From NCBI GenBank assembly GCA_049322615.1, contig JBMORX010000001.1, forward strand, positions 6,715 to 70,714: a stretch of DNA of 64,000 nt, read 5' to 3'. The position numbers and the translations under genes are program-made. Shown here piece after piece: positions 3,891-55,262 of the stretch. The stretch comes from Patescibacteria group bacterium (lineage in GTDB: Bacteria > Patescibacteriota > Microgenomatia > CAYGWK01). Positions within the stretch are counted from its first letter, which is position 1. Every line of letters starts with the position of its first letter. The notes beneath the pieces were generated by a model, which did not search any database, was not told the origin of the DNA, and saw only the letters and a list, made by a program, of their open reading frames with translations.

Positions 3891-4439
3891 TCACTGAGAC
3901 GCGGAACCCCGCTTAGCGGGGCGCAGAGACGCGGAAATTTTCTGCGTTTCCGCCTGCCCGCCAAGGCTTACGCCATCAGGCGTTGGCAGGCGGGCGGTTA
4001 CAATTTTTCCTCCCGCTTTTTCGATCTTTGCCTTAGCTCCCTTAGAACACGGCAGTTTGACAATTAAGGGAATTTTAACCTCGCCTTCACCTAAAATTTT
4101 AACATTTTTGGATTTGCTATCCTCAATTCTTAATATTCCCTTATCTTCCAGAGTTTTTAAAGTAACCTCTTCTTTGGGAGAAAAAAGATTCAGATACTTT
4201 AAATTGACGATAATTGGTTTTTGGGAACTTGGTTTGAATTTGCCTTTCCCCCTTATTAAAGGCAGTCTTTTAAGAAGAGACTTCTTTATTTTTGTTCCCT
4301 CAAAAAGAAAAGCTATTTTTCCCCTCGCTTTCTGACCTTTGGCGCCCCGACCAACAGTATGACCTCCCTTGCCTGAACCGATTCCCCGACCAATTCTTTT
4401 TTTAGATCTAGTTGTTATTTTAGGTAGTTTGCTTAACAT
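3891..4439 (-). CDS. rplO: 50S ribosomal protein L15 with a roughly 35-aa C-terminal extension encoded by a GC-rich repeat element
   Basis: [25 protein letters not shown]15 motif; 182 aa against a typical ~145; the extension covers 3896..3997. Confidence 0.9.
3896..3997. repeat. GC-rich palindromic element, copy 1 (core 3896..3953 plus an extra inverted repeat to 3997), translated as the L15 C-terminal tail
   Basis: gagacgcggaaccccgcttagcggggcgcagagacgcggaaattttctgcgtttccgc; about 65% GC in a roughly 38% GC context. Confidence 0.8.
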
Positions 4440-4472
4440 ATAAGTTACTTAAGTCACTTAGGTAACTTAAGT
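4440..4472 (-). repeat. CTTAAGTNA repeat spanning the rpsE 3' end (it encodes KLKLPK) and the spacer before the rplO AUG
   Basis: ataagttacttaagtcacttaggtaacttaag. Confidence 0.8.
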
Positions 4473-4894
4473 TTTTTTAATGCCTCAAAAGTGGCATAAA
4501 CATTCGAGGCTTGATTCCGAGTTCCTAAGATTTTTGAAACAATGTCTCTAATTCCTGCCGCTTCAACCACTGCCCTGACTGCTCCTCCGGCAATAACTCC
4601 TGAACCTTCAGGCGCTGGCTTAAGCAAAACTTTCGCTGCTCCAAGTTTAACATAAACTTGATGAGGAATAGTTGTCTCTCTGGTAGGCACAGAAATTAGA
4701 TGCTTTTTAGCGTAAGTTGCTCCTTTTAAGACGGCTGCGGAAACATCAGGAGCTCGGCCTAAACCTACTCCAACTCGACCTTTTTTATCTCCAACAACCA
4801 CTAAAACAGAAAAGGAAATTCTGTTTCCGCCTTTGGTTTTTTTGGAAACCCGATTTACCTGAACTACTTTTTCCTCAAATTCTTCGTTTTCCAT
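4454..4894 (-). CDS. rpsE: 30S ribosomal protein S5
   Basis: S5 dsRBD and C-terminal domain ([17 protein letters not shown]). It is followed directly by rplO with no L30 gene. Confidence 0.95.
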
Positions 4895-4928
4895 AAGTTA
4901 CTTAGGTTACCTAAGTCACTTAATTGAC
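4895..4928 (-). repeat. CTTAAGTNA repeat in the rplR-rpsE spacer, immediately before the rpsE AUG
   Basis: aagttacttaggttacctaagtcacttaattgac. Confidence 0.8.
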
Positions 4929-5222
4929 TTAGAACTCTAACCCTCCTTCCCTGGCTCCTTCGGCTAGGGCTTTTACTCGACCATGATATTTAAATCTTCC
5001 TCGGTCAAAATAGACTTTTTTTATACCTTTTTTCAAGGCTTCCTCGGCTAACAGTTTTCCAACCTGACGACTTCTCTCGATTTTACTTAAGTTACCTAAG
5101 TCACTTAAGTTACTTAAGTCGTTTACCGCCACTAAAGTCTGACCCTCCTCATCGTCAATAATTTGCCCATAAATATATTTATTTGAGCGAAAAACCGAAA
5201 GTCTCAGACGGGTTCTTTTCAT
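4929..5222 (-). CDS. rplR: 50S ribosomal protein L18 (contains an in-frame 9-bp-periodic repeat insert [11 protein letters not shown])
   Basis: L18 fold motifs ([17 protein letters not shown] ... [24 protein letters not shown]). Confidence 0.9.
5085..5128 (-). repeat. CTTAAGTNA repeat inserted in frame inside rplR (encodes [12 protein letters not shown])
   Basis: ttacttaagttacctaagtcacttaagttacttaagtcg, with a 9-bp period that preserves the reading frame. Confidence 0.8.
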
Positions 5223-5800
5223 TTCGTTCCTCCTTTTGCCATACCGGCTGGCGCACCCGCTATTCCAACCTTAACTTGCTTTCCGGGCTTTAATTTAATT
5301 TGCTCTTGCTCAAAGCGGATTCCCTTTCCTTTATAAGCATCTGGGGGCTTAATGGCTCTGATCCGAGCAGCCACTTGCCCCACTAACATCTTATCAGCCC
5401 CCGAAACCGTGATTTTATTTTGGGAAACGGTAAAAGAAATTCCCGGTGGGGGAACAACCTGGATTTGATGGGAAAATCCAAGCGAAAGTGAAAGTTTTCC
5501 CTCAAGCAGGGCTACCCGATAACCTGTTCCTATAATCTCTAGAGTTTTTGACCAACCATCTTTCACCCCTTTTATCATGTTAAAAACAAGATTGCGGATT
5601 GTTCCCTGGTAAGCTTTGGTTTTCTCGGAGGTAGTTTTTTGCGAGAATTGAATTTCCCTCGGGCTGACCTTAACTTTTATTTCCGGAGGCAAGGTTAGGG
5701 AAAGTGAACCTTTTGCTCCAGCCACTTGAATTTTCCCGTCTTTTACTTCTACGGTTACTCCATCTGGTATTTCAACTGGTTTTTTTCCTATCTTAGACAT
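5219..5800 (-). CDS. rplF: 50S ribosomal protein L6
   Basis: Two L6 domains; canonical spc order. Confidence 0.95.
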
Positions 5801-9073: not shown

Positions 9074-9083
9074 ATTCGCTGAT

Positions 9084-9503
9084 TTACGCAGATTTTTTAA
9101 CTGATCTACGCTGATTGCCTCCTTTTTCGTTAGCCCCTGATACTTTTGATGTCTCTAACATCTTCTTTTTTTCAGCTTCCGCCTCAAGGATCACTTTTAT
9201 ATGACTTGTTCTTTTTTTAATTGGATGAGCCTGACCTCGGGAAACTGGCTGAAAACGTTTATATATCGGTCCTTCGCTTACTTCTATTTTTTTTATCTTC
9301 AAATCCTCATTTTTTAAAGAAAAATTATTTTGGGCGTTGGCAATTGCCTGTTTTAAGGTTTTGCTTAACCATTCTCCTCTTTTGCCTGCTTGAGAAAGCA
9401 AGACAAGTGCCTGTTTTGAGTTCATTCCCCGAATACTGTCGGCGACCAAACGCAGTTTTCGCGGGCTAATCCTTGTATATCTTGACTTGGCAACAATTTC
9501 CAT
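9084..9503 (-). CDS. rplV: 50S ribosomal protein L22
   Basis: L22 fold (AKSRYTRISPRKLRLVADSIRG). Confidence 0.9.
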   Translation of the reverse strand: MEIVAKSRYTRISPRKLRLVADSIRGMNSKQALVLLSQAGKRGEWLSKTLKQAIANAQNNFSLKNEDLKIKKIEVSEGPIYKRFQPVSRGQAHPIKKRTSHIKVILEAEAEKKKMLETSKVSGANEKGGNQRRSVKKSA

Positions 9504-11514: not shown

Positions 11515-12188
11515 ACTTTTTCCTCCTCACCTTTCTCTGGGCTCTCCATTTCTTTCTGCACCCTCTGCCTTGCAGGTTTCTTAATAATCAAAAGCCCCTT
11601 TTTTGCTCCAGGAACCAAACCCTTAACTAAAAGTAGATTTTTCTCAGGCAAAACTTCAAAAACTTGCAAATTCCGCACTGTTACCCTTGCCCCACCCATT
11701 CTTCCAGCCATTTTCTTACCTTTTAAAACTCTTCCTGGAGTGGTGGTTGAGCCAATTGAGCCTGGAGCCCTTTCTCTGTCTGACTGACCATGAGTTTTAG
11801 GTCCTCCGGCAAATCCCCATCTTTTAACCACCCCGGCAAAACCTTTGCCTTTGGAAGTGCCCGTAACATCAACAATATCTCCAGGTTTTAAAACATCCCC
11901 AACTTTAATCTCATCCCCAACTTTAAGATTAGCGCTGATTTCCTGCTGATTAGCGCTGACTTCTCGCAAAAAGCGGGGGATAATTTTTAACCCCGCTTTT
12001 TTTATGTGCCCTAAAATTGGTTTCTTGGTCTTTTTTTCTTTTTTTTCACCAAATCCAAGCTGAACTGAATCTTTTTTAATTTGAACCACGAAACAGGGAC
12101 CAGCCTGAATTTGGCTTACTGGGATTCGCTCTCCTTCGCTGGTAAATTTTTGCGTTTGTCCTAATTTTATTCCTAAAATCGTATCCAT
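11511..12188 (-). CDS. rplC: 50S ribosomal protein L3
   Basis: L3 signature (KGKGFAGVVKRWGFAGGPKTHGQS). Confidence 0.95.
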   Translation of the reverse strand: MDTILGIKLGQTQKFTSEGERIPVSQIQAGPCFVVQIKKDSVQLGFGEKKEKKTKKPILGHIKKAGLKIIPRFLREVSANQQEISANLKVGDEIKVGDVLKPGDIVDVTGTSKGKGFAGVVKRWGFAGGPKTHGQSDRERAPGSIGSTTTPGRVLKGKKMAGRMGGARVTVRNLQVFEVLPEKNLLLVKGLVPGAKKGLLIIKKPARQRVQKEMESPEKGEEEKV

Positions 12189-12225
12189 AAGTTACTTAGG
12201 TTACTTAAGTCACTTAAGTATTACC
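12189..12225 (-). repeat. CTTAAGTNA repeat immediately upstream of the rplC AUG
   Basis: ataagttacttaggttacttaagtcacttaagtattaccc. Confidence 0.8.
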
Positions 12226-12394: not shown

Positions 12395-12422
12395 AAAATA
12401 TGTAATATTGCGATGGAAAACC

Positions 12423-12452
12423 TACATCTTGATTTCGATGTCGACGCCTGCC
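12423..12452 (-). repeat. duplicated copy of the last 9 codons plus stop of rpsJ (AGVDIEIKM*), about 100 bp downstream of the real rpsJ 3' end
   Basis: ctacatcttgatttcgatgtcgacgcctgc against the real rpsJ end ctacattttgatctcaatgtcgacgcctgc at 12527..12556: 27 of 30 identical. Confidence 0.8.
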
Positions 12453-12531
12453 CCAGTATAGTCTTACCACTCGCCTTTTCAGTATTATTCATACACGGCT
12501 CGTGGAGCGACCTTTGCGGGGCAATCGGCGT

Positions 12532-12840
12532 CTACATTTTGATCTCAATGTCGACGCCTGCAGGGAGATCGAGGTGTTGGAGGGAATCAATGGTTTTTTC
12601 CGTAGGTTCTAAAATATCAATTAAGCGCTTGTGAGTGAGAATTTCAAAATGTTCCCGGGCATCTTTGTCAGTATGAGGAGAAGTGGTAACGCAGATTAAT
12701 TTTCTCTGGGTTGGTAAGGGGATGGGTCCGGAAATTTTGGCACCTGAGGCTAGAGCCGCCTCCAAAATTTTTGAAGCGGCTTCATCAATAACCCGGTGAT
12801 CGTAAGATTTTAAACGTACTCTAATTCTTCCTTTAGGCAT
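12532..12840 (-). CDS. rpsJ: 30S ribosomal protein S10 (start taken at [14 protein letters not shown]; the longer track ORF starts further upstream)
   Basis: Canonical S10 sequence. Confidence 0.95.
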
Positions 12841-14128: not shown

Positions 14129-14256
14129 ATTTTTTGAGTTAAAAAAGAGGTCTAAACCTCAAATCTTTTTGTATTTTACAGGCTTATTTTACAGATGTCA
14201 AGCCCCGATTGCAAATCGGTGTATAAGTTAAGTCAAGCACCTTATTTGTAACTTCT

Positions 14257-14290
14257 TTGTATCATTGTCATAGTACAATAGTACAAAAAC
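14257..14290. promoter_or_regulatory. operator-like motif copy A (contains TGTCATAGTACA, the reverse complement of the core), ~130 bp upstream of island-1 promoter
   Basis: tttgtatcattgtcatagtacaatagtacaaaaac. Confidence 0.55.
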
Positions 14291-17799: not shown

Positions 17800-17914
17800 G
17801 TTGCCTCTCGCTTTTGAAGTTAAAACTTTCGAAAAATTCCCACCTAAAAGGCTTTACATCTGCGGACACAATTTCGTCCAATAGGATGAGATTATATCGA
17901 CAAACTTGACAAAA

Positions 17915-17950
17915 TTTTTGTATCATTGTACTATGACAGTGATACAAACA
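17915..17950 (+). promoter_or_regulatory. operator-like motif copy B overlapping a TTGACA promoter and ending at the ATG of the TrpR/YerC-like gene
   Basis: cttgacaaaatttttgtatcattgtactatgacagtgatacaaacatg. Confidence 0.6.
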
Positions 17951-18474
17951 TGGGAAGAACAACTTACTATCCAAGAATTAAAAGAATTGAAAAACTAAAA
18001 AGAGAAGAGATTTTGGAATTGATGTTTGACTTACTTAATGCCTTTCGCCTAGTGAATTCGCCCCTTGAGACGGCTTTTTTAATCCAAGATCTTTTAACTG
18101 CCAATGAAATTAAAAATTTAGCCAAAAGACTTCGTATCGCCAAACTTTTATTGGAAGACAAAACCCAAAGAGAGATTGCCCAGGAAGTCAAAGTAAGCTT
18201 GGCGACGGTCACCAAAGTTAATTTGTGGCTGATGCAGGGAGGAGAAGGATTCAAAAGAGTAATCTCAAAACTGCCAAAAAAATACCAAATACCAAAAAAA
18301 CTGCCGCCGCGACCACTAACTTTTAATCTTCCGGAAACTCTTTTAATTTTGGCTTCTTATGGTTTAGCCAAAAGACAGGAGAAAAATTTGGAAAAATTCC
18401 TTCAAGGAGTTGAAAATAAACAAATCCTTGATAGAAACCTTCGCGAAGTCTTTGATGAAGAATTCAGAAAATAA
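17950..18474 (+). CDS. TrpR/YerC-like helix-turn-helix DNA-binding protein (ATG at 17950 preferred over the track's TTG at 17926)
   Basis: LLTANEIKNLAKRLRIAKLLLEDKTQREIAQEVKVSLATVTKV follows the Trp-repressor-like YerC/YecD family pattern; the gene is flanked by operator-like motifs. Confidence 0.6.
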   Translation: MGRTTYYPRIKRIEKLKREEILELMFDLLNAFRLVNSPLETAFLIQDLLTANEIKNLAKRLRIAKLLLEDKTQREIAQEVKVSLATVTKVNLWLMQGGEGFKRVISKLPKKYQIPKKLPPRPLTFNLPETLLILASYGLAKRQEKNLEKFLQGVENKQILDRNLREVFDEEFRK

Positions 18475-18480
18475 CTCTTC

Positions 18481-18510
18481 TGTACTACTGTACTATGACA
18501 ATAGTACAAG
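18481..18510 (+). promoter_or_regulatory. operator-like motif copy C, downstream of the TrpR-like gene in the convergent gap with rpsG
   Basis: tgtactactgtactatgacaatagtacaagg, immediately followed by AAGGAGGT. Confidence 0.5.
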
Positions 18511-18550
18511 GAGGTAACAAGATAAAGTGAAAAAATCTAAACCAGGAAAA

Positions 18551-35396: not shown

Positions 35397-35597
35397 CTAG
35401 ACTTCTTCAAAGAGGGCCCGGCGATATTTTTTAGTCTTTTTATCAAAAATGTAAATTCTGCCACATTTGCAAGTCACTTTTTCCCCTAGGTCACTTTTGA
35501 TCTGCCTTTTGCCTTTTTCTAAAGATACACCACAACCAACACACTTGCCTTGGGCAAGTAACCATGCTTGAACTGGAGCAATAATTTTTTTAAACAT
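35397..35597 (-). CDS. small zinc-ribbon protein (CxxC...CxC), hypothetical
   Basis: 66 aa with CVGCG ... CKCG. Confidence 0.45.
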   Translation of the reverse strand: MFKKIIAPVQAWLLAQGKCVGCGVSLEKGKRQIKSDLGEKVTCKCGRIYIFDKKTKKYRRALFEEV

Positions 35598-35608
35598 ATT
35601 ATAACGCT

Positions 35609-35688
35609 AAGACGCTGAACCTCGCTTCGCTCGGCGCAGAGACGCTAAAAATTTTGCGTTTTTGCTAAATTCTACGTTTTTGCGTTTC
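35609..35688. repeat. GC-rich palindromic element, copy 2 (same orientation as copy 1), between ruvX and the Zn-ribbon gene
   Basis: aagacgctgaacctcgcttcgctcggcgcagagacgctaaaaattttgcgtttttgc. Confidence 0.75.
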
Positions 35689-36030
35689 CAGATACTCTTG
35701 CAATATTAGCGCCGCAGAGATAGCATCTTCGTCTTTGACTCTCTTGCCTATCTCTTTCATTTTAGCAACTGCTTCTTGACTCGTCAAGGTTTCATCTTGA
35801 AACTTAACTGGCAACCCGGTAATTTTTCCCAAACCACGCCCAAATTTTCTTGCTCTTTCCGCCATTTTTCCTTCAGATATTCCGACGACTATTTTCTCAA
35901 TTCCCTCTTTCTGGCAAATACTTACAATTTGCCTGTTACTTTTTACTATTTTTAAGGGCTCGGCTAGCACTCCTTCAGAGATTGCCAACCCAATTTTTCT
36001 CTCACCATAATCTATTCCCAATATTTTCAT
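35665..36030 (-). CDS. ruvX: Holliday-junction resolvase-like RuvX/YqgF
   Basis: MKILGIDYGERKIGLAIS, the RNase H-like YqgF N-terminus. Confidence 0.85.
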   Translation of the reverse strand: MKILGIDYGERKIGLAISEGVLAEPLKIVKSNRQIVSICQKEGIEKIVVGISEGKMAERARKFGRGLGKITGLPVKFQDETLTSQEAVAKMKEIGKRVKDEDAISAALILQEYLETQKRRI

Positions 36031-36722
36031 ATCTTGACCAACCTTGTCCTAACCACCAACCTGCGCAGGTATGTCCCCGGCGGAACACAGGTAATCAGGG
36101 TTAAATATGAATCGTCATATTTTTGTTCAAGAACAGAAATATCTTCTTTTTTAACTTCAGTCATTTGTTCAATCATGTACTTATATTTAACCCCGTCAAA
36201 ATCAACCAAAATTTCATCTTTCACTTTTAAGGTCGGTAAGGTTGAAAAAATGGTTAAATAGTTTTTGGGGTTATAGAATTGAGGCAAAACCGAATGACCA
36301 AAGACAACCGTATTGCCAAATTGACCAGGAAAAGCTGTTCCTTCATATTGAATCAGGCTTTTTTTCAAATCTTCGCCACCAATTTGAACTACAGCCTCGG
36401 CAATTTTTAGTTTTGGGATAGTCAAGGTATAATGGGTGATTTTTGAGGGTAAAGGTGGAAGTTTTGGCGCAGTCGGAAACCAGTTGGATACTTTAGTAAA
36501 ATCAACTTCCTCTACATTTTTTTCTCCTAAAACTTGCTCTTGGGGTATCGGTTTTATCATCTCGGAAAATTTTGGGGAAACAAAAAATTGATAGAAGAAA
36601 ATCGGTCCGGCTGCGCTTCCGATTAAAATAAAACCGACCAAACTCAAAAAAATAGATAAAAATTTGCTATTTACGGCATGTTCTCGAGTTTGGCTCTCTT
36701 TTTTAACATAACAATAGTGCAT
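36027..36722 (-). CDS. sortase family transpeptidase
   Basis: N-terminal TM, a catalytic His in VVFGHS and the TLITC active-site Cys motif. Confidence 0.75.
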   Translation of the reverse strand: MHYCYVKKESQTREHAVNSKFLSIFLSLVGFILIGSAAGPIFFYQFFVSPKFSEMIKPIPQEQVLGEKNVEEVDFTKVSNWFPTAPKLPPLPSKITHYTLTIPKLKIAEAVVQIGGEDLKKSLIQYEGTAFPGQFGNTVVFGHSVLPQFYNPKNYLTIFSTLPTLKVKDEILVDFDGVKYKYMIEQMTEVKKEDISVLEQKYDDSYLTLITCVPPGTYLRRLVVRTRLVKI

Positions 36723-38870
36723 CTACTTACTCCTTATCTCAAGGGTAATCTTATTCTCCCTTCTAGGGATGGTTCCCAATATTCCGGGAAGCCGGGGAGA
36801 AAGGATAATTTCTGAATCAGCATACCCGGAAAGACTTGAAAGATACTTTTTGGCAAGATCTGGGTACTTTCCCTTGATATTTTTAATAATTTCTTCTTTG
36901 TCTAGCTTTGGCAAAAGATTGGCTTTAATAATTGTCTTGAAAAGAATGCTCCCGTCCTCATTTTTCTTCTTAATCTCAAAACGGGCAGTGATTTCTTCTT
37001 TCTTAAGTTCGAAATCTTGGGGAATTGAGCCTGAGATAAGTTTCTGAGCCAAAAAAGCAAGATCCTCATCAGTAAAAGTCAGTCCAGTTACTTTAACGGT
37101 TAGGTTTAAAGCCAGCGTTTGGGCTTCATCGCCGACTTTATGATCAAAATTTGTAGAAACAGGCTGAGCCAGAATCTCCTCAATTAATTTTTTACCTGAG
37201 GACACTTTAGATAAAAGACTCATTTTCCCTTTCTCAGTAAGTTCTTGAGAAAGTTTTACGAGAAGGTCTTTTTGGTCTTTTTCGGAAACTGCTTGGATCT
37301 GCCGACTTGTCCCGCCAATGAAAGCAGACTCATTTTTAGCCAAATATGAAGAGGTGGGAAAATCTTTAAAAGAAAACTGGGAGGAGGAAGCTAAATTATA
37401 TTGAGCGCCAATATCAACAGCAGTAACGGCAGTTTTCGTCTCTCCCCACTTATCCACTCCGCTTGCTAAATCTGGGGTTTTAGAGGCAACAGTTGTTTCT
37501 CGATCAAGAGTAAATTTAAGATTTCCCGGTCCAACAATAATTGTTCCCTCAGCAAAGATCTTCTTGCTATCTGTCCGGTTATAGACAGTTACCTCGCCAC
37601 GAGCATGCTCACCCACAGTTTTCTCCCCAGTAGTTGGGGCGGTTTTCTCTCCAGTTTCCTGGGTTTCAATGACTTGAGCCGGCAAAATAAAATTTTTCTC
37701 ATCAACCACTTCTTGATTTGGATCAACGGTCAACTCTAGCCCTTTTTCGAGAGCTTGAGGAGTGACATAAATTGTCACTTGAGCTTTGGGCACATTCCAC
37801 CAAAAGACCACCACTGCTCCTAAGATTAAAAGGATTATTCCAACACCCATGGTAACAAGCGGCATTCCAACCGGCAGGGCTGGTAATGAGGGGAGATGAA
37901 TTGTGGATAACTTTTCTTTTAAAAGCCCGAGTGTTGGTTTGGGTTTTTCCTCTTGGGGCGGGGCAAAAGTTGGTTCCTCAGGCACAGGGACAACCTCTGC
38001 TTTAAACTCTGAAGCCACATCTTTGCCTTTAACAAATCCCAAATCTCTAGAGGGTTCCACTTCTTTTTTTGGTTCAGAGATAACTTTAAATCCTAAACTT
38101 TTAGCCACTTCTTTTCCTCCAGCCAAGGAAACGGCAGTGATATCAAAATCATAAGGAAGAATTTCTATTTTGGGAAAATGTAAAAACGGAAGCCTTTTTC
38201 CCTCAATTTGAAAAGTTTGCCACTGATAACCAATTAAAACCTGCCTTGCTTCCTCCATGTCCTCACCATTGAAAAGAAGCATTCGTGAAGGCAAAATTTC
38301 AATCCCGGTAAATCGCAATAATCCTTCACAAACATCAGCTGCCAAATTCTCGCTTCGCACAATTTGCTCTACTCCCTTTATTTTCCCAACCTCAACAATC
38401 GCCAAAGTTACTTTTGTTCTGCCGGGACTAATTAAAATTGCCGAAGCTGGTGTCCCTTCGACATCTTTTAAATGATGATTCAAGGCATCAAAAGTTGAAA
38501 CAAAACCAACTGGCTCAAGCTCTAATTTCTGACAAAGAGCCGAAAGCTTTTCCTGATACTCGGGCTTAATCTTGTTCTCCAATGTCCAGTCTTCTGGTAA
38601 GCCAAAAATAACTTTTGAGGGCTCGCCTCCTTCGCCAACAAACCGTTCAGAGGCTGTCGAAAGACTTTTATCAACGGCAATCGTTAACTCTTCAACTCCA
38701 TCTTCCCAAGCCTCATGGCTCCCTAAAGCCACAACCTTGGTTTTCTCCTCTTCAACCGTCCAGATAGCGCTTTTGACTCCTTCGTCCCAAATTTGAAGAG
38801 CCCAAAAATATTCTTTTTTAGCTTTTTCTTCTGGATGAGTTATTTTATCGATGATGTTAGGCAGCTCCAT
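36723..38870 (-). CDS. large hypothetical membrane protein (N-terminal ~330-aa cytoplasmic domain, one TM, long extracellular domain)
   Basis: TM GMPLVTMGVGIILLILGAVVVFWW; no recognisable family; likely translationally coupled to the downstream sortase. Confidence 0.6.
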   Translation of the reverse strand: MELPNIIDKITHPEEKAKKEYFWALQIWDEGVKSAIWTVEEEKTKVVALGSHEAWEDGVEELTIAVDKSLSTASERFVGEGGEPSKVIFGLPEDWTLENKIKPEYQEKLSALCQKLELEPVGFVSTFDALNHHLKDVEGTPASAILISPGRTKVTLAIVEVGKIKGVEQIVRSENLAADVCEGLLRFTGIEILPSRMLLFNGEDMEEARQVLIGYQWQTFQIEGKRLPFLHFPKIEILPYDFDITAVSLAGGKEVAKSLGFKVISEPKKEVEPSRDLGFVKGKDVASEFKAEVVPVPEEPTFAPPQEEKPKPTLGLLKEKLSTIHLPSLPALPVGMPLVTMGVGIILLILGAVVVFWWNVPKAQVTIYVTPQALEKGLELTVDPNQEVVDEKNFILPAQVIETQETGEKTAPTTGEKTVGEHARGEVTVYNRTDSKKIFAEGTIIVGPGNLKFTLDRETTVASKTPDLASGVDKWGETKTAVTAVDIGAQYNLASSSQFSFKDFPTSSYLAKNESAFIGGTSRQIQAVSEKDQKDLLVKLSQELTEKGKMSLLSKVSSGKKLIEEILAQPVSTNFDHKVGDEAQTLALNLTVKVTGLTFTDEDLAFLAQKLISGSIPQDFELKKEEITARFEIKKKNEDGSILFKTIIKANLLPKLDKEEIIKNIKGKYPDLAKKYLSSLSGYADSEIILSPRLPGILGTIPRRENKITLEIRSK

Positions 38871-38906
38871 GATTATAGTAAATTTTAAATAGTAAATAGC
38901 AAATAG

Positions 38907-40769
38907 TTAGTCTAGTGTTGCATAGATCCGACGGATACCGGCGCCTGCCGACCCTTCTTTTATAATCTTAAACCTTCCAAGCCTGCCTGTAAAGTCAACA
39001 TGAGGTCCACCGCAAACTTCAACCGAAAAAACTTGCCCTGAGCCTACCGAAGGGTCTCCGATTGAGTAAACCTTAACTTTTTCACCATATTTTTTTTCAA
39101 ATTCAGCCATGGCTCCTTTCTCCTTGGCTTGCTCAAGCGTCATCATTTCCATCTCAACTGGCAGGTTTTCTTTTATCTTCTGGTTTACTAATTCTTCCGT
39201 GTCTTTCAGTTCTTTTTCCGTGAGTTTCCGTGGGTTGGGAAAGTCGAAACGAAGCCGCTCGGCCGTGATATTTGAACCAGATTGTTTAACATGCTCGCCT
39301 AAAATTTTCCGCAGGGCAGAATGCAAAAGATGGGTAGCTGTATGAAGTTTTGTAACTTTCTCCGAATGATCCGCCAAGCCGCCGGCAAATTTTTTCTCTG
39401 CCCCAACCCGAGAAGTTTCCTGATGTTTTTTAAATTCTTCTTCAAATGCTTTTTTATCAATTTTTTGCCCCCTTTCTTGAACAATTTCCTCGATCATCTC
39501 CAGAGGGAATCCATAGGTTTCGTAGAGATAAAAAGCAATTTTTCCATCAAGTTTTTTACATTTTTCTATTTCTTTAAGTCCGCGCTCTAAGGTTTTTTTA
39601 AATTTTTCTTCTTCCAAAGTCAAAGTTTCCAAAATCTGGTTCTTTTTCTTTTCTAATTCTGGATATTCTCCTTTCATTGTCTGAATTACAGTTTCTGCAG
39701 CATTTGGAGTAAACAGTTTAATTAATTGTCCGCCTTTGGCGGAAAGTGTTCTTCCAAAACGGACTGCTCGTCGAATCAGTCGGCGCAAAACATATCCCTG
39801 TTCAACATTTGAAGGTGTCACACCATCGGAAATCAAAAATGTTGCCGCCCGAAGATGATCAGCAATAATTCGCATTGGTTTTTGGTTTTCTTCTTGCTCG
39901 TAATTTTTTCCAGAAAGCACTTCAATTGATTGAATTATTGGTTTAAACAGTTCTGTTTGGTAATCATCATCAAGTCCACCCAAAACCGCAACCGTTCTCT
40001 CAACTCCCATCCCGGTATCCACGTTTTTTTGTTTAAGAAAAACATATTCGAAATCCTTTTCTCTGGCGTTCTCATTTTTTAATTTTTCATTTTTAATTTT
40101 TAACTTTTTTTCGTACTCCATAAAAACATCATTCCAAATTTCAACCCAGGAAACATCATCTGGATTAAAGGTTTTTGGTGCTTCATCTTTGCCCACCCAA
40201 ACAAACATTTCCGTATCCGGTCCGCAGGGACCAGTTTTCCCAGCCGGGCCCCACCAATTGTTCTTTTTGGGTAATTTTGCTATTCGAGTATCGGATATAC
40301 CCAATGAAACCCAAATATCATATGATTCCTTATCAAATGGAGCATCGTTATCTCCAGCAAAAACGGAAATTGCCAGTTTGTTTTTGTCAATTCCCAACCA
40401 TTCTTTACCGGTTAAAAACTCAAAACTCCACTGGATCGCTTCTTTTTTCCAGTACCCGCCTTGTCCGATGCCGTCAGGCGAGGCAGGATCTCCCAAACTC
40501 CAATTTCCCAACATTTCAAAAAAGGTATGATGGACAGTATTTCCGACTTTATCAATATCATCGGTCCGCAGACATCTTTGAACCGAGCAAAGTCTCTCGC
40601 CAAAGGGGTGAGGCTCACCAAGTAAATATGGTACCAGCGGGTGCATGCCGGCGGAAATAAAAAGAGCAGTTGGATCGTTTTCGGGAATCAAGGAAGCATT
40701 GGGGATAACTCTATGCCCTTTTTTGGCAAAAAAATCAAGATATTTTTGCTTTAATTCTTTAGCGGTCAC
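38907..40769 (-). CDS. alaS: alanine--tRNA ligase, short form (catalytic, tRNA-binding and editing core; no C-Ala domain)
   Basis: FISAGMHP ... HHTFFEMLGNWSLGD class II core; editing HxxxH (HTATHLLH) and CGGPHV; 620 aa; an in-frame [13 protein letters not shown] repeat insert. Confidence 0.9.
   Translation of the reverse strand: MTAKELKQKYLDFFAKKGHRVIPNASLIPENDPTALFISAGMHPLVPYLLGEPHPFGERLCSVQRCLRTDDIDKVGNTVHHTFFEMLGNWSLGDPASPDGIGQGGYWKKEAIQWSFEFLTGKEWLGIDKNKLAISVFAGDNDAPFDKESYDIWVSLGISDTRIAKLPKKNNWWGPAGKTGPCGPDTEMFVWVGKDEAPKTFNPDDVSWVEIWNDVFMEYEKKLKIKNEKLKNENAREKDFEYVFLKQKNVDTGMGVERTVAVLGGLDDDYQTELFKPIIQSIEVLSGKNYEQEENQKPMRIIADHLRAATFLISDGVTPSNVEQGYVLRRLIRRAVRFGRTLSAKGGQLIKLFTPNAAETVIQTMKGEYPELEKKKNQILETLTLEEEKFKKTLERGLKEIEKCKKLDGKIAFYLYETYGFPLEMIEEIVQERGQKIDKKAFEEEFKKHQETSRVGAEKKFAGGLADHSEKVTKLHTATHLLHSALRKILGEHVKQSGSNITAERLRFDFPNPRKLTEKELKDTEELVNQKIKENLPVEMEMMTLEQAKEKGAMAEFEKKYGEKVKVYSIGDPSVGSGQVFSVEVCGGPHVDFTGRLGRFKIIKEGSAGAGIRRIYATLD
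40072..40106 (-). repeat. The same AT-rich in-frame repeat inside alaS (encodes [13 protein letters not shown])
   Basis: tcattttttaatttttcatttttaatttttaac. Confidence 0.6.
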
Positions 40770-50161: not shown

Positions 50162-50986
50162 TTATGGCAGGGTTGAGCCTTTGTAGATTTTGGGTTCAAG
50201 CCAGTCCGAGGGGGCCGCCGCTTGGGTTTTCTTCTCTTCTTTTGGAGGAGAAACCACCTCTCTTCTTCCTCCGGCTCGCAAACAGAAAGCCGCTGCCTCA
50301 AAGGTATCAGCGGAAACTTTCGGATTTTGAAAATTTTGCGTTGCCTCTCCTATTCCTTGGATTAAATTAGAGCCAATGTCTTCATCAATCGGCAAACCTA
50401 GACTCTGAATAATCGCCGCCACCGTCTCCGAACAAGAGGAAGACTCCAAATCCACCAGGTTTAATCTCCCGAAATTAGAATTTTGAGGGTTATTGTCAAT
50501 GTTGACTATCGGTTTTTCCTGAAAAATTACCTGGTTTTCTAAATATATTTTTCCTAAGCCTTCAACTTTCCTTGCGCCGACGGTAATAACAAGATCTACT
50601 CCTCCCCCAGATTGGTTAAAAATAATTTGTTCTTTAGTGATTGGCGAGACCCCTGCTTTCGGGGCAATAACTAAACTTAGGTGTTGACCATCATCTGTGG
50701 TTGAAATTTTATCAACATTCTCAATTGGGGTATTTATGGTTAAAACTAAATTTCCCCCTAAGATTTTATCAGTTATTTTATCAAGACCTACAAGGTGGGA
50801 GAACCCAACTGTCATTGGTTCGGGAGAGACGATATTGACACTTTTTCCTGTTTTTGAAAGACTTAAAAATAGAGAAAGACCGGCCGCTGCCTGATCTAAA
50901 GTAACGCTTTTAGGCAAGCAAATCAAAACATTTTTTGCTTCTCCTAAAAGTCTTTGAATTTCTGTGAAAGGATAATTCTTATTCAT
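50162..50986 (-). CDS. DHH/DHHA1-like (NrnA-like) protein with a degenerate active site
   Basis: Occupies the rbfA/nrnA slot downstream of infB. A GGG motif (FNQSGGGVD) sits where DHHA1 has GGGH, and no DHH motif is visible, so it is probably inactive or divergent. Confidence 0.45.
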
Positions 50987-53900
50987 TTGTCTTGGGCAGG
51001 GCGGGCTGATATTAACACATCACCAACCTTGAAGTCAAGTGAGGGCGTGAAAACTGCGCCAAATTCTTCTCCTTCTAAAGCCTCGGAAATATCAGTTTTT
51101 TGATGTTTCATTGAAGAAATTTTTGTTTCTCCAACTTCCTTTCCCCCTCTTTGAAGAGACAAATTGCAAGTCTTATTTATTCTTCCTTCTAAAACCTTGC
51201 AACCAGCAATTCTTGTTCCGGAGATATTGAATCCCTTAATAATCACCGCTTTACCCAAGATTTCTCTTTCAACTTCAGGCAAAACTTTCTCCAGTCCTTT
51301 TTTCTCTACATCCTCCAAAAGTTCATAAATAATTTTATAGGTTTTTATCTTCACTTTTTCGGTTTCTGCCAGTTTCTCAACTTGAGAGGAGGCTTTGACA
51401 TTAAAACCAACAACTTCAGCGTTAATTGTCCGGGCAAGTAAAATATCAGATTCCAAGATGTCTCCAACGCCTGACATAACGATAAAAACATTTCCTGGTA
51501 AACTTCCTTTTATCGCCTCTCCAGAACCAAAAGAATCAGTTCTTAAAATAATTTTAAGTTTGTCTTTTGCTTCTTCTGGAATTTCAAGTTTTCCTATCTC
51601 CCTGGGCAAAGCTTGGGGAGTTGTTAGTTCTTCTATTTTCTCCACCTTGGCTCCCACTAAAGGAAAACTCTCAAAACCCCAAACTTCGACTGGCTGACCA
51701 GGTTTAGCCTCAGTTAAATTCCTGCCATTTTCATCCATCATTCCTCGAACTCGAGTGGAAACTTTCTCAACCAAAATCTGCTCACCTGTCCTTAGGGTAC
51801 CATTTTTGACAATCATCGTTCCCACCATCCCCCTCCTATCCATTTTTGATTCAATAACGACAGCCTCAAGGGGCGCTTGCGGGTCGCTTTTAATTTCTTC
51901 CATCTCCCCCAAAAGAAGAATCATCTCTAGAAGTTCTTCTATTCCTTGTCCGGTCTTGGCTGAAACTGGGACGCAGACGATATCTCCACCATATCCCTCA
52001 ACTAAAACTCCATTATCAGCTAGCTGTTTTTTTACTTTCTCTGGGTCGATTCCAGGGAGATCAATTTTACTTATGGCAACTAAGAATGGCACTTGGGCTT
52101 CCTTGATATGCTCTAAAGACTCTAGGGTTTGGGGCATGACACCATCATCAGCCGCTACCACCAAAACGACAATATCAGCCACGTTTGCCCCTCGAGACCG
52201 CATGGCGGAAAAAGCCTGATGTCCTGGAGTATCAATGAAGGTGATCTTGCGTGTTTGGTCCACAAGGTCATCCTGAGCTTGCCGAAGGATCCCTCGACTC
52301 TCTTCGGTCGCTCGGGATGACGGTTCCACCGTCACCTGATAAGCGCCTATTTTTTGGGTAATTCCCCCGGCTTCCCTTTCAGCGACGTGTGTTTGGCGGA
52401 TACGGTCAAGAAGGGTGGTATTGTGAATAACGATACGCTCAGCAATAAAGTTATGCGTGTCAGGGACAGTAAAATCGTACACAAATTTATCCCGTGCTCT
52501 TATTTTTTCTACCTTGCGAACTCTCACAGAACTTAAACTGGTATTTAAAACCGCTCCCATCTGATTCTTAAATTTTAGTAATCCTAAAGAAGATAGGTGT
52601 TTTAAAAAAGGACGAGTTAAAAACCCGCTGGTTTTCTGGTAACTGCCCCAATACGGAATTACCTTGTTGTTAGTTTTAATTCCCTTTAAAAACTGAGAAG
52701 TTAAAGGAGTAAAATCAAAAATTCTACTCACCGAGGACCTAGTTAAAGCATTTTTAATTCTTGTTTTCTTATAATCAAGCCGTAAATTAAATTGTCGTAA
52801 GAAAATCTCAAGATAAGGCTTGTTGGCGATACGCAAATAAGTATAACCATTCTTGCGATAGAGCGTACTGTGGATGCCAAAGTGAAGTAAGGTCACGCCT
52901 ACCTGTCTTAACAAAATCTCACTTCTGCTTGTAAATTCGGCGCTGTAATTAATTTCCGAAACATAGCCGTCGGTATCAAAAAGGCCAGCAATAAATTCTC
53001 TCATTAACGGAAGGGAACGGGTTATTAACGAAGGCACCCCTACCTCCGAGCTTTTCCGAAGGAGGGGAATATCGAAAATCTCTGTCATAAAACGTCGCAA
53101 TGTTTTACCGCCAGTGGTATAACTCTTGAGGGCGGGATGACCGCGCCTAGTTTGAGTAGCGACACCAAATATTTCCTCCATGTATTTCCTAAAAGTTCCA
53201 TAAACCTGAGCATCATTGTTGTGAAGGAAGATATTGTTCTCATTAAGGCTACCATCACCGACAATACAGCCAGTAATATAAGCCAATTTAGTAAAATCTG
53301 TTTTGGTTTTAGGGAGAATAATTTTGTTACTTGTGTGTCCAACTCGCCATTTTGGGGAAGCATTCTTGACTGCCGTTATAAAATCATAAAGCTCCTCATC
53401 AGTAAAACCCAGAATAGAACCAAGATTAAGATAGTCCTGGAGGCGCAACCGTCTTTTTCCAAGCTGCGTCCGGGCATCAGTCGTGAATAAATTCTTTCTC
53501 ACAAGATCGCTGGTTTTGCATTTTTGGATTTTTTGCCAAAACCTTTCTGCTTCTTTATGTAAAAAAATTACCCAATTCCCCCGAGCTATCATCCTTTGCA
53601 AAATATCTCTTTTAATATCTTTCAGGCTTGCCGAGCGGATAGGTAAATCTTTCGGCACAATGACAAAATCACCTACTGTTAACTGTTCTGCTTTCTTTTG
53701 GATGATTTCTCCATGGGGAGTAAAAAGATAGAAAGGATGCTCTCCTGTCGTCACCACCCTATCACCCGAATAAAGTGCTGTCCTAACAAGGTACTTTGGA
53801 GAATTTAGTTTCCAAAGATGAGAAACGCGACGCGTGGTTATTCTTTTTCCATCAAAGCTAAAAACTTTAAGTAAACCTTTCAATTCAAACCTTGATCCGT

Positions 53901-54087
53901 CTGGAAATTTTTCTTCTTGAAGACTGCCGGAATAAATCTCGAAAATTTTGGCGGCGGTAAGAACTCTACCGTCGGCGAGGGGAATTAACGTCTCACCGGT
54001 AACGCACTTTCCATGGTCAACGTGTCCTAAAACCGCCACAATCGGCGGCCGGGTAAAAGCTTTGCTTTTCTCTTCTTTTTTGGCCAT
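50983..54087 (-). CDS. infB: translation initiation factor IF-2 interrupted by an intein in the G1 P-loop
   Basis: GHVDHGK | C...HN | TTLLDRIRQT, then the G-domain, domain II and C-terminal domain; 1034 aa, of which 529 are intein. Confidence 0.95.
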   Translation of the reverse strand: MAKKEEKSKAFTRPPIVAVLGHVDHGKCVTGETLIPLADGRVLTAAKIFEIYSGSLQEEKFPDGSRFELKGLLKVFSFDGKRITTRRVSHLWKLNSPKYLVRTALYSGDRVVTTGEHPFYLFTPHGEIIQKKAEQLTVGDFVIVPKDLPIRSASLKDIKRDILQRMIARGNWVIFLHKEAERFWQKIQKCKTSDLVRKNLFTTDARTQLGKRRLRLQDYLNLGSILGFTDEELYDFITAVKNASPKWRVGHTSNKIILPKTKTDFTKLAYITGCIVGDGSLNENNIFLHNNDAQVYGTFRKYMEEIFGVATQTRRGHPALKSYTTGGKTLRRFMTEIFDIPLLRKSSEVGVPSLITRSLPLMREFIAGLFDTDGYVSEINYSAEFTSRSEILLRQVGVTLLHFGIHSTLYRKNGYTYLRIANKPYLEIFLRQFNLRLDYKKTRIKNALTRSSVSRIFDFTPLTSQFLKGIKTNNKVIPYWGSYQKTSGFLTRPFLKHLSSLGLLKFKNQMGAVLNTSLSSVRVRKVEKIRARDKFVYDFTVPDTHNFIAERIVIHNTTLLDRIRQTHVAEREAGGITQKIGAYQVTVEPSSRATEESRGILRQAQDDLVDQTRKITFIDTPGHQAFSAMRSRGANVADIVVLVVAADDGVMPQTLESLEHIKEAQVPFLVAISKIDLPGIDPEKVKKQLADNGVLVEGYGGDIVCVPVSAKTGQGIEELLEMILLLGEMEEIKSDPQAPLEAVVIESKMDRRGMVGTMIVKNGTLRTGEQILVEKVSTRVRGMMDENGRNLTEAKPGQPVEVWGFESFPLVGAKVEKIEELTTPQALPREIGKLEIPEEAKDKLKIILRTDSFGSGEAIKGSLPGNVFIVMSGVGDILESDILLARTINAEVVGFNVKASSQVEKLAETEKVKIKTYKIIYELLEDVEKKGLEKVLPEVEREILGKAVIIKGFNISGTRIAGCKVLEGRINKTCNLSLQRGGKEVGETKISSMKHQKTDISEALEGEEFGAVFTPSLDFKVGDVLISARPAQDK
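52420..54006 (-). mobile_element. intein (Hint splicing domain plus LAGLIDADG homing endonuclease) inserted between GHVDHGK and TTLLD of IF-2
   Basis: N-terminal CVTGETLIPLADG (block A), LAGLIDADG motifs LAYITGCIVGDGSL and EFIAGLFDTDGYV, C-terminal VIHN followed by Thr+1; 529 aa. Confidence 0.85.
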
Positions 54088-54093
54088 TTTTTC

Positions 54094-55188
54094 TCACTTC
54101 TTTTTTGTTTTTTTTGTTTTTTTCTGTGCTTTCTGCTTGCCCGCCGTAGCCTTGCTCGGCCTCCGCAGCCGCTTCGGCGAAGGAGGCGCGGAGGCGGGTG
54201 TTGCAGGTTTTCCCTCTCCTTCACCCATAATATCAATTTTGTAGCCAGTCAATTTTGCCGCCAGCCTGACGTTTTCTCCCTTTTTGCCAATTGCCAAAGA
54301 TAATTGATCCCCAGGGACAACCACTTTAGCAGTTTTTAGTTTTTCATTAAGCTCAACGCTTATTCCCTGAGCTGGAGATAAAGAGGCGGTAATAAATTTT
54401 TCTGGATTATCGCTGTGCTGAATGATATCGATTTTTTCCCCATTTAACTCTTCAATTACTTCCTGAACCCTAACCCCTTTTTGACCAACGCATGAGCCAA
54501 CTGGATCAACTCCGGCTTGATTTGAGAAAACAGCAATTTTAGTCCTTCCTCCCGGTTCTCGGGCAATGGCGGCAATTTCAACTGCTCCTGAGGAGACTTC
54601 AGGTACTTCTCGTTTAAAAAGTCCTTCCACCAAACCCCTTGAGGCTCGAGAAACAATAATTTGTTGACCGCGAGGTCCCTCTTTAATTCCTTCAATATAA
54701 AACGTCAGTCTTTGATTAAGCTTGTAGCCCTCGCTTCTGACTTGTTCTGAAGGAGGCATAACCGCCTCGGTTTTACCAATATCAACCACAATGTTAGGAC
54801 CATCAAAACGGAGAATCATTCCCGAAACTAGAGTGCCTATTCTTTGCGAATACTCATCCAAAATAGCACTTTTCTCAGCCTCGCGGATTTTTTGCAAGAT
54901 TACTTGTTTTGCGGTCTGAGCGGCAATTCTTCCAAATCCAGGGGGGGTAATATCTTCTCTTTTTTTGCCCTTTTTCTGAAAAATCTTTGCTTCGCCTGAA
55001 GAAGGGTTTATTTCAACTTCAAATTCTTCTTCTTCAGGAATTACTATTCCCCGCTCCCGGGCATCCCGCCGGTAGGCGGCGACAATGGCTGCCTTAATTG
55101 TTTCCAAAACCACCTCGGGCTCAATCCCTCTTTCTGTGGCAACTTGAGTTAAGGCAGTGGCAAATTCAGTTCTTGGTATATAAGCCAT
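54094..55188 (-). CDS. nusA: transcription termination/antitermination factor NusA (start at MAYIPRTEF; the track ORF extends upstream through a repeat element)
   Basis: N-terminal domain, S1 domain, two KH domains, and a lysine-rich tail. Confidence 0.9.
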   Translation of the reverse strand: MAYIPRTEFATALTQVATERGIEPEVVLETIKAAIVAAYRRDARERGIVIPEEEEFEVEINPSSGEAKIFQKKGKKREDITPPGFGRIAAQTAKQVILQKIREAEKSAILDEYSQRIGTLVSGMILRFDGPNIVVDIGKTEAVMPPSEQVRSEGYKLNQRLTFYIEGIKEGPRGQQIIVSRASRGLVEGLFKREVPEVSSGAVEIAAIAREPGGRTKIAVFSNQAGVDPVGSCVGQKGVRVQEVIEELNGEKIDIIQHSDNPEKFITASLSPAQGISVELNEKLKTAKVVVPGDQLSLAIGKKGENVRLAAKLTGYKIDIMGEGEGKPATPASAPPSPKRLRRPSKATAGKQKAQKKTKKTKKK

Positions 55189-55195
55189 AATAGTA

Positions 55196-55262
55196 TCGCA
55201 GAAACGCAAAATTTTCTGCGTTTTCGCGCCCCGATTTAATCGGGGTTCCGCGCCTTTGCGTA
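55196..55262. repeat. GC-rich palindromic element, copy 3 (inverted orientation), immediately upstream of the nusA start
   Basis: Reverse complement gcggaaccccgattaaatcggggcgcgaaaacgcagaaaattttgcgtttctgcg aligns base-for-base with copy 1. Confidence 0.8.

Follow-up and report, generated by a model that had tools for sequence, protein, structure and literature searches.

A probable lineage-restricted family of palindromic repeats at gene junctions of a Microgenomates-type Patescibacteria genome

Patescibacteria (Candidate Phyla Radiation) have tiny, tightly packed genomes. Here, a short palindromic element is described that is present in three copies within 64,000 nucleotides of a Patescibacteria group bacterium (GenBank assembly GCA_049322615.1, contig JBMORX010000001.1 of 110,692 nt, positions 6,715 to 70,714; this whole stretch is called the window, and its own coordinates are used throughout). 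One copy lies between rplO, the gene for ribosomal protein L15, and secY, where it is read as the end of L15. With a probability of roughly 0.65, the element represents a small (~60-90 bp), non-autonomous and lineage-restricted family of palindromes in Microgenomates-type Patescibacteria, resembling repetitive extragenic palindromic (REP) sequences, bacterial interspersed mosaic elements (BIMEs) and miniature transposable elements with inverted repeats (MITEs). It is taken for inserted repeat-family DNA because its occupancy of junctions varies among relatives, its subfamilies are shared at non-orthologous sites, the identity of the inserts contrasts with that of their flanks, it occurs in two orientations and its stems do not covary. 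It is a new lineage-restricted family of an already known kind of selfish repeat and not a new kind of system.

Occupancy of gene junctions in relatives and distribution beyond them

The element was examined in ~69 kb of this genome and in ~50 kb of relatives, represented by the contigs labelled L001-L004, L017-L020, L022 and L023. The L15-secY junction was compared by alignment in seven genomes, including the window, and proved to be filled or partly filled in six of them, again with the window included. In L017-L020 the junction is empty and reads GAA TAA A ATG, with a single nucleotide between the stop and the start codon. L001 and L003 carry a full element of subfamily 2 (the two subfamilies are defined below), followed by a 75-nt module of three more hairpins that ends in AAGGAAGTTT directly before the ATG; only the left units are found in L002 and L023, only the right-hand 26 nt in L004, and a subfamily 1 element with a nested palindrome in the window. 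In every filled state the stop codon of L15 is gone and L15 reads into the insert. A second junction behaves in the same manner. Indeed, L017, whose L15-secY junction is empty, holds a clear copy (E 1.7e-15) between the genes for L22 and S3, with L22 reading into it (..DTAKTQKI before the stop) and with the same left boundary, ACC followed by GCAAAAACGC, as in the L15-secY copies, and in L002 this junction is empty and L22 overlaps S3. Presence/absence polymorphism at orthologous sites, by which MITEs are recognised, is hence found at both L15-secY and L22-S3. These comparisons bear out in kind the suggestion of an earlier note, made on the sequence of the window alone, that the element is a REP/MITE-like mobile palindrome, since junctions are empty, filled, truncated or occupied by another subfamily, and subfamilies are shared at non-orthologous sites.

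The sharing of subfamilies is apparent from copy 2, located at the end of ruvX, which shares 90% identity with the L15-secY copy of L003 and 86% with that of L001, and reaches only 80% with copy 1 and 77% with copy 3, the two others in the window. The contrast between insert and flanks is seen in L001 and L003, which are 68% identical in the L15 core and 77% in secY, versus 92% over the 155-nt insert and 100% over 75 nt of it, the identity dropping to that of the surroundings a few bases away from the secY ATG on one side and inside the left units on the other. The fully identical stretch is the 75-nt module (L001:2550-2624 and L003:1184-1258), which ends in AAGGAAG, similar to a Shine-Dalgarno (SD) sequence, before secY and is absent from the window. 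Either a very recent exchange between co-occurring populations or chimeric Logan contigs joined across the shared repeat could account for such identity. In a tree of L15, poorly resolved as it is built on ~145 aa, proteins with element-derived tails are scattered among element-free ones.

The C-termini of L15 homologues are very variable. Among the six closest homologues and two more distant ones, two C-terminal classes can be distinguished: proteins of 148-149 aa that end in KVE before the stop, and proteins with tails containing the peptide A-E/K-T-Q-K, which corresponds to translated GCGGAAACGCAGAAA (examples being TAETQKEAKTQKI, TAETQKGAETRNLASSRRAKRGSAS, TARGSAS and NAETQKGIVK). Comparison with L15 orthologues, as proposed in the earlier note, was informative, in that L15 has 148 aa in the relatives with an empty site and the tails of the other relatives are element-derived as well. 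More distant L15 proteins of Microgenomates (P0065, P0076, P0100/P0102, P0105, P0106 and P0116) have other tails that are not rich in lysine, with segments such as PASPAGRQ, PRADQPLVG, DPNASRRGAG, SFAEATEG and SVPSGGSVPS that resemble translations of other GC-rich repeats. Judging from these sequences, the 3' end of the L15 gene may be a general landing site.

By sequence searches, the element appears to be undetectable outside a narrow clade. In particular, an exact pattern for its 3' half had no match in the GTDB representatives and JGI metagenomes, and a looser pattern that fits four known copies gave 10 matches in these collections, none of them related, all in DNA of 59-73% GC and 8 of them within one conserved coding motif. 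There was no blastn match in phage and plasmid collections and no copy in a 20.6-kb locus of a more distant member of the Microgenomates, and a protein search with concatenated six-frame translations of the element against a database of 5.8e9 sequences, where matches of this kind are too short, retrieved only P0045 (E 0.03). The best named relatives of the window L15 and of a neighbouring transposase family are found in Microgenomates (Gottesmanbacteria, Shapirobacteria). Text searches returned no paper describing REP/MITE-like repeats in Patescibacteria or Microgenomates, which holds for the searchable literature and is no proof of novelty.

Anatomy of the element and its host genes

The presence of three copies, as reported in the earlier note, was confirmed by a three-copy nhmmer profile, which matches the window at 3894-3953 (plus), 35607-35665 (plus) and 55258-55198 (inverted) with E values between 6e-19 and 2e-17. 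Apart from these copies and palindromic self-hits, the best other match in the 64 kb had an E value of 0.26, and a six-copy profile recovered the same three copies. The 11-nt unit GCGTNTNNGCG occurs five times in the window, always within the three copies, against 0.44 occurrences expected, and none of the element was found in 5 kb of adjoining contigs. The density amounts to 3 copies per 64 kb in the window (~1 per 21 kb) and to 1 per ~10 kb in L017 and L002.

Alignment of the copies reveals a modular plan, in which a unit of ~10-15 nt, TAYC-GCRRAAACGC (in written form TAYCGCRRAAACGC), is present one to three times and is followed by an A/T-rich spacer, an inverted unit GCGTYTYYGC, a short GC hairpin (hairpin 1) and a terminal unit. 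The inverted unit pairs with the preceding unit to form hairpin 2, whose stem has 9-10 bp; hairpin 1 has a stem of 6 bp and a loop of 3-5 nt. The terminal unit, TTCNGCGTCTYAG followed by C or G, repeats in direct orientation the unit ahead of hairpin 1 and is, relative to the left end, an imperfect inverted repeat. Indeed, the left and terminal units are short and imperfect inverted copies that match at ~10-11 of 13-15 positions (~75%), and in copy 3 TATCGCAGAAACGC and the reverse complement of GCGCCTTTGCGTA agree at ~11 of 14. The ACGC...GCGT core of hairpin 2 and the GC...GC ends of the units are invariant across all copies. In subfamily 1, to which copies 1 and 3 belong, hairpin 1 is perfect, being either CCCCGC/GCGGGG or CCCCGA/TCGGGG, and in subfamily 2 (copy 2, L001 and L003) it is CCGAGC-GAA-GCGAGG, with tandem G.A.

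Element sense refers to the minus strand for copies 1 and 2 and to the plus strand for copy 3. Copy 1 (subfamily 1; 3894..3953, minus), supported by nhmmer (E 1.9e-18), its sequence and the alignments, starts with the left unit GCGGAAACGC, separated by an A/T loop from the inverted unit GCGTCTCTGC, and continues with hairpin 1, to end in the terminal unit TTCCGCGTCTCAG. From sequence and RNAfold, its hairpin 1 is the GC-rich CCCCGC-TTA-GCGGGG of 6 bp (3907..3921, minus), and its hairpin 2 is formed by GCAGAGACGC and GCGTTTCCGC with an A/T-rich loop between them (3923..3953, minus). At its left end an extra GC-rich palindrome of 44 nt is nested (3954..3997, minus; blastn-short, alignment and fold), which is single in the window by blastn-short and is an insertion relative to L001, L002 and L003. 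Copy 2 (subfamily 2; 35600..35689, minus; E 2e-23 with the six-copy profile, and sequence) comprises two left units (35680-35689 and 35656-35665 in plus-strand coordinates) and an inverted unit, after which follow the imperfect hairpin CCGAGCGAAGCGAGG and, as terminal unit, TTCAGCGTCTTAGCG. Copy 3 (subfamily-1-like; 55190..55267, plus; E 1.8e-19 with the six-copy profile, sequence and fold) has hairpin 2 at 55198-55228 and hairpin 1, CCCCGA-TTTAA-TCGGGG, at 55229-55245.

Two hairpins had been ascribed to each copy. This is true of copies 1 and 3, which give two adjacent hairpins on either strand (z -4.7 to -5.8; -5.5/-5.8 for copy 3), and not of copy 2, which in mRNA sense folds no better than shuffled sequences (z -0.5) because its first hairpin, the imperfect CCGAGC GAA GCGAGG, carries the tandem G.A; subfamily 2 copies as a whole have z values of -0.2 to -1.7 against shuffled sequence. 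RNAalifold applied to five copies recovers hairpin 2 and part of hairpin 1, with 0 compensatory pairs and a covariation term of +0.76, although by eye one compensatory change can be discerned at the loop-closing pair of hairpin 1, from C-G in copy 1 to A-T in copy 3. What is conserved thus appears, as far as the aligned copies tell, to be sequence (ACGC...GCGT, GC...GC) and not covarying structure. The GC content put forward earlier, ~65% against ~38% for the genome, similarly fits copy 1 (63%, or 67% with the extra hairpin) and neither copy 2 (51%) nor copy 3 (52%), the window being at 40%.

Nearly all genes of the window are on the minus strand, and no tRNA and no Rfam family were found in its 64 kb. 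The open reading frame (ORF) of rplO (3891..4439, minus) encodes an L15 of 182 aa, of which the Pfam domain ends at residue 147; residues 148-182 (35 aa; 3894-3998) are encoded by the nested palindrome and copy 1. There is no stop in the L15 frame ahead of the TGA at 3891-3893, which lies 4 nt before the secY ATG (3886), so that the earlier description of a copy without stop inside the rplO frame, adding about 35 aa, holds. The long SecY start that was thought to read through copy 1 does not: the TTG start is spurious, and secY from the ATG at 3886 (2594..3886, minus; Pfam SecY) encodes 430 aa, a length as in relatives. The ruvX gene (35665..36030, minus) encodes 121 aa (MFZ5365715.1), with the Pfam RuvX domain at residues 1-115, and its last ~6 codons and stop (..LETQKRRI before the stop) are supplied by the left unit of copy 2. 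The nusA gene (54094..55188, minus; Pfam NusA_N, KH_5) starts with the ATG at 55188, 9 nt from the end of copy 3, and a promoter scan places a promoter-like site at 55361-55333 (minus) upstream of copy 3, which lies antisense within the nusA leader. Copy 2, which had been called intergenic together with copy 3, is not purely so, as its left unit is coding.

The tails gained comprise +35 aa in L15 and +6 in RuvX of the window, and +7 to +25 in L15 and +8 in L22 of relatives. The translated copy had been regarded as unusual, which was overstated: in every filled variant of L15-secY, among six related genomes, the L15 frame runs on into the insert, and the frames of RuvX here and of L22 in L017 also enter copies. 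L15, L22 and RuvX enter the element in one and the same frame (x-T-Q-K), which is the frame where subfamily 2 gives the earliest stop (ATT TAG). The shared frame is compatible with selection for short tails, and chance is possible with three sites (1 in 9). From their reading frames, the tails are probably really translated. There is precedent for palindromic repeats fused in frame with host ORFs, among them Rickettsia palindromic elements (RPEs) and other MITEs (PMC10969869). By analogy with RPEs, the verdict reached here is that the translated tails would be a by-product of insertion between abutting genes. As in RPEs, a palindromic repeat with open frames is tolerated in or at the end of essential genes of a small reduced genome and gives rise to an extra peptide. 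RPEs, unlike the element, are ~100-150 bp long and are internal gene insertions encoding a conserved peptide (PMC10969869), whereas the element sits at gene 3' ends and junctions with variable C-terminal tails, and the two share no sequence similarity. A possible degenerate relic, weakly assigned from its sequence, is present at the L22-S3 junction of the window (TCAGCGTAGATCAG ... TCTGCGTAAATCAG; 9077..9114, minus), where it would be read as the end of an L22 of 139 aa, versus 122-123 in relatives; the motif count there is not significant.

Proposed mode of insertion and competing explanations

The preferred interpretation, a mobile repeat family, may be detailed as follows. A trans-acting enzyme would insert the element, in either orientation, in the few nucleotides between neighbouring genes. 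Since genes abut or overlap in a compact genome, insertion ahead of a start codon would remove or displace the upstream stop. Indeed, L15 and secY are ~1 nt apart in L017 and L22 overlaps S3 in L002, and thus a viable insertion would have to sit in, or replace, the end of the upstream ORF. The upstream gene would then be translated into the element up to the first in-frame stop. Read-through may be tolerated or even favoured, as ribosomes would keep traversing the hairpins and the next gene would stay translationally coupled. Later, copies would decay by deletion and gather other hairpin modules, resulting in BIME-like mosaics. The relation between ORF end and SD motif in the variants of L15-secY, six in all, is in keeping with the idea that read-through preserves coupling. 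In particular, where secY has no SD motif (window, L002, L004 and L023) the extended L15 ORF ends between an 8-nt overlap and 5 nt before the ATG; where L15 ends 77-114 nt upstream of secY (L001 and L003), the added module provides AAGGAAG 3 nt before the ATG. A counter-example to the coupling idea is the L22-S3 copy of L017, with its stop 38 nt upstream and no SD.

Several points weigh against a mobile repeat family. No transposase tied to the element, and no consistent target-site duplication, were found in the DNA examined, nor was an insertion or excision polymorphism seen within a single population, and that DNA, ~69 kb plus ~50 kb, includes 3 copies in 64 kb of the window. The invariant ACGC/GCGT cores and the near-identical insert of L001 and L003 would also be expected under strong functional selection. 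The orientations at four independent sites, 3 sense to 1 antisense, decide nothing. The common left boundary of the L15-secY copies, ACC/GC, could reflect one old insertion followed by loss, conversion and decay instead of repeated insertion, and the scatter of tails in the L15 tree is subject to the poor resolution noted above.

It is also conceivable, though unlikely, that the element and its hairpin modules form an actively spreading cassette that homes to stop/start junctions within the ribosomal-protein operon (L15-secY, L22-S3), moves horizontally between co-occurring Microgenomates, is kept harmless by read-through or by a cassette-borne SD and is recognised by a conserved trans-acting enzyme. 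If this were true, no mobile repeat system of Patescibacteria would have been described before it, and harmlessness inside essential operons would be built in.

The serious rival, itself held to be improbable, is a cis-regulatory element, that is, a selected module tuning expression at operon junctions as an RNA structure or a protein-binding site, maintained because it is functional and not because it is mobile. It could be a hairpin that stabilises or processes mRNA, a roadblock or operator (palindrome ACGC-N10-11-GCGT), or a coupling device before secY, nusA and S3. This is in line with the position of all copies, whose ends lie upstream of a start codon, by 4-11 nt in the window and by up to ~115 nt in relatives, with the invariance of the ACGC/GCGT half-sites and GC...GC unit ends, with an insert conserved in L001 and L003 far above the flanking essential genes, with the tandem G.A of subfamily 2, stable on the mRNA-sense strand only, and with the SD pattern described above, which fits a need for secY translation. 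However, one close relative has nothing at the L15-secY junction and three others retain no more than unrelated fragments of the left or the right part, so that the structure is dispensable, and copy 3 runs opposite to transcription. The absence of compensatory changes in RNAalifold and of an Rfam family argues against a conserved RNA as well; Rfam gave 0 matches in the window at the gathering threshold, and at E<=10 the best was 28.7 bits against a gathering score of 100 (a model of a plant-virus 3' untranslated region), the others reaching 18 bits or less. Moreover, the folding of subfamily 2 is no better than that of shuffled sequence, no enrichment of the unit is seen outside the elements, and 75 nt at 100% identity beside flanks of 68-77% resemble recent transfer rather than structural selection. 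Two other functional classes were rejected. An intrinsic terminator does not apply, as none of the three elements contains a hairpin followed by a T-run, and neither does a DNA uptake sequence (DUS/USS) or another over-represented word, as the unit occurs only inside the three elements with no enrichment elsewhere in the window.

Classical REP sequences are imperfect palindromes of 20-40 nt that occur in tens to hundreds per genome, mostly extragenic. Like REPs and BIMEs, the element is a short GC-rich imperfect palindrome in an AT-richer genome, lies at gene boundaries in both orientations, forms mosaics with other hairpins (copy 1 with the nested palindrome, L001 and L003 with the 75-nt module), has subfamilies differing in stems and loops, and occasionally provides intragenic units. 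Stem-loop palindromes are present as in classical REPs (hairpins 1 and 2 in copies 1 and 3), with hairpin 1 imperfect in subfamily 2. Unlike a REP, which is a single hairpin of 20-40 bp, the element is a composite of 60-90 bp (unit, inverted unit, hairpin, unit) and is seen at a low density of 3 per 64 kb. Neither hairpin of any copy has GTAG or CTAC beside it. REP families tagged with CGTC have this tetranucleotide at the terminus, beside a stem of 8-9 bp that starts with A/T pairs, with a loop of 4-5 nt and a CCA-like tail (PMC3733652); the element has CGTC as part of the unit GCGTCT at a distance of 5-6 nt from hairpin 1, with G/C pairs making up its 6-bp stem and with no tail of the CCA type. 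The host, a Patescibacteria lineage, is not among the phyla listed in that REP survey (PMC3733652).

These comparisons are relevant to the possibility, more doubtful than a cis-acting role, that the element is the REP or REPIN partner of a REP-associated tyrosine transposase (RAYT, of the Y1/HUH type) and spreads as single-stranded hairpin DNA as in proteobacteria. The element is indeed a GC-rich hairpin repeat in both orientations, and relatives encode a 214-aa Y1_Tnp protein (PF01797), the gene of L002 lying between those for S10 and L3; the only NCBIfam match of the latter is the RAYT model NF047646, at 63 bits and below the cut-off of 80. The Y1 family is widespread in Microgenomates (3489 proteins at E<=1e-20), with a constant length and graded identity, and most of the listed Y1 clusters are on a single contig, resembling single-copy, vertically inherited RAYTs. 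These units, similar to IS200/IS605 and RAYTs (e.g. L002:848-1593), are thus found in the same lineage and the same ribosomal-protein operon as the element and have hairpin-bearing ends, showing that these bacteria do possess HUH/Y1 enzymes capable of moving hairpin DNA. On the other side, no Y1_Tnp was detected in the 64-kb window by tblastn, and the Y1 genes of L002 and L022 (~65% identical in the protein) are flanked by their own conserved ends, a CGATCCWGGATCG hairpin and the inverted repeat GACGAAACTGG, which are unrelated to the element, absent from the window and undispersed in the loci examined. No RAYT flanked by the element was seen in the DNA examined. Taken with the missing GTAG tag, the position of CGTC inside the unit instead of beside the stem, and stem and loop dimensions that differ from the CGTC families (PMC3733652), a REP-RAYT relationship is not supported within the ~10% of the genome covered. 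Hence the earlier label does not extend to classical REP membership, given that no tag adjoins the stem and no cognate RAYT was found in the DNA examined, at an observed density of ~1 copy per 21 kb.

As for other bacterial repeats, the element shares with Correia/NEMIS, ERIC, RUP and BOX its size range, putative and imperfect terminal inverted repeats, co-transcription with neighbours and presence/absence polymorphism between relatives, and its modularity is as in BOX. It differs from bacterial MITEs in lacking a clear target-site duplication, in terminal repeats of only ~13-15 nt that are ~75% matched, and in having no known parent insertion sequence and no phage or plasmid match. Transposons of the IS630/Tc1-mariner type insert at TA, which is duplicated. 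An origin of the element as a MITE of such a DDE transposon, hitting the TA of TAA or TAG stops, would explain the lost stop codons, and is nevertheless slightly less probable again than a RAYT partnership. The termini are imperfect inverted repeats (~11/14 in copy 3), the empty L15 site has a TA in its TAA stop, and a TA flanks the core at a distance of 2-3 nt on the left (copies 1, 2 and 3, L003 and L017) and of 0-3 nt on the right (copies 2 and 3, L001, L003, L004 and L017). TA or TAT is accordingly near both ends of copies 2 and 3, L003 and L017, at a variable spacing, and is missing to the right of copy 1 and to the left of the L001 copy. The varying distance from TA to core, the commonness of TA in a genome of 40% GC, the two ends without TA and the absence of any DDE transposase from the DNA examined all speak against this origin, as do the left junctions (GAA ACC GC.), which do not fit a simple split of GAA TAA.

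Finally, errors of assembly or sequencing are a highly improbable source of the L15 read-through or of the repeats: metagenome assemblers do err at repeats, and the short Logan contigs of relatives could be chimeric across the shared repeat, but Logan contigs of run SRR32167786 reproduce the window at 1595-4470 and 32665-39030, including copies 1 and 2, with 0 mismatches, relatives from other runs have related inserts at the same junction with L15 reading into each, and the NCBI annotation gives the same ORFs (182-aa L15, MFZ5365674.1, and 121-aa RuvX). The frameshift that the earlier note had considered behind the read-through is thereby excluded within the limits set by comparing two assemblies of one data set.

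Other repeats of the window and implications

The window contains further repeats and insertions. Tandem 9-bp repeats (TTAAGTNAC / GTNACTTAA) are present at 928-979, 4437-4479, 4890-4932, 5075-5126 and 12184-12217, with arrays upstream of S13, L15, S5 and L3 and one inside the L18 ORF (4929-5222), where it is translated as 12 residues; they are a second, AT-rich repeat family invading the same ribosomal-protein operon. In this operon, an insert of ~83 nt is flanked by two copies of the 3'-terminal 29 nt of rpsJ (S10), at 12532-12560 and at 12420-12448 (region 12420-12560, minus), and in L002 the S10-L3 spacer (848-1593) holds the gene of the 214-aa RAYT-like Y1 transposase with its conserved hairpin and inverted-repeat ends. 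The S10-L3 spacer looks like an insertion hot spot.

Translated repeats are also found in other genes. The GC-rich repeat GAYCCTTCGRYARGCTCAGGR occurs at 39036-39052, 52271-52287 and 55738-55754 (minus), inside the genes for alanyl-tRNA synthetase (AlaRS), initiation factor 2 (IF2) and an SNase-like nuclease, and is translated as DPS(V/T)GSGQ or ILRQAQDD (3 matches against 0.13 expected). Its IF2 occurrence is embedded in a palindromic insertion of greater length within the G domain. The product of infB (50983-54087, minus) contains, close to where its GTP-binding domain begins, an intein with a LAGLIDADG homing-endonuclease domain (Pfam Intein_splicing and LAGLIDADG_3), which accounts for its length of 1034 aa. 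The C-terminal tail of NusA (..GKPATPASAPPSPKRLRRPSKATAGKQK..; 54131-54214, minus) is encoded by a stretch of at least 70% GC with the palindrome CCTCCGCGCC..GGCTGCGGAGG, which may, from its sequence, represent a further case of a palindrome inserted at the 3' end of a gene and translated.

Outside genes, a repeat family GGGGCGGGATTTTAAGGGCTCAAATCCCTAGGTGGCGAACCCC, sometimes followed by AACGGTTTAGGGCCATGAACCGATTAAATCTGGTTCATTGGCTATTCCACCTCC, is located at 57532-57561, 58603-58654, 59329-59358, 60318-60436 and 62208-62336, between genes of a variable region that includes one for a protein with an Mrr_N domain. The spacer upstream of rpoB (26810-26910, minus) forms two long GC-rich hairpins (-54 kcal/mol, z -6.8) and has no Rfam match. 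An AT-rich palindromic repeat similar to TTGTACTATTGTACTATGACAATGATACAAA is found three times in intergenic positions (14246-14288, 17910-17948 and 18472-18520), towards that end of the cluster where tuf/fus and rpoC lie, and may be an operator or promoter element.

All in all, read as the work of a mobile repeat family, the locus shows selfish palindromic repeats colonising even the ribosomal-protein/secY operon of such genomes, with the C-termini of essential proteins (L15, L22 and RuvX) being remodelled as a side effect. The variable C-terminal extensions of ribosomal proteins in these metagenome-assembled genomes are accordingly not to be taken for functional novelties or frameshift errors, and repeats of this kind are likely break points of short-read assemblies. 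If the coupling idea is right, the junctions, which range from an empty one to one with an early stop and an SD brought by the cassette, with read-through as far as the start codon in between, would represent a natural series on how translational coupling limits where mobile DNA survives.

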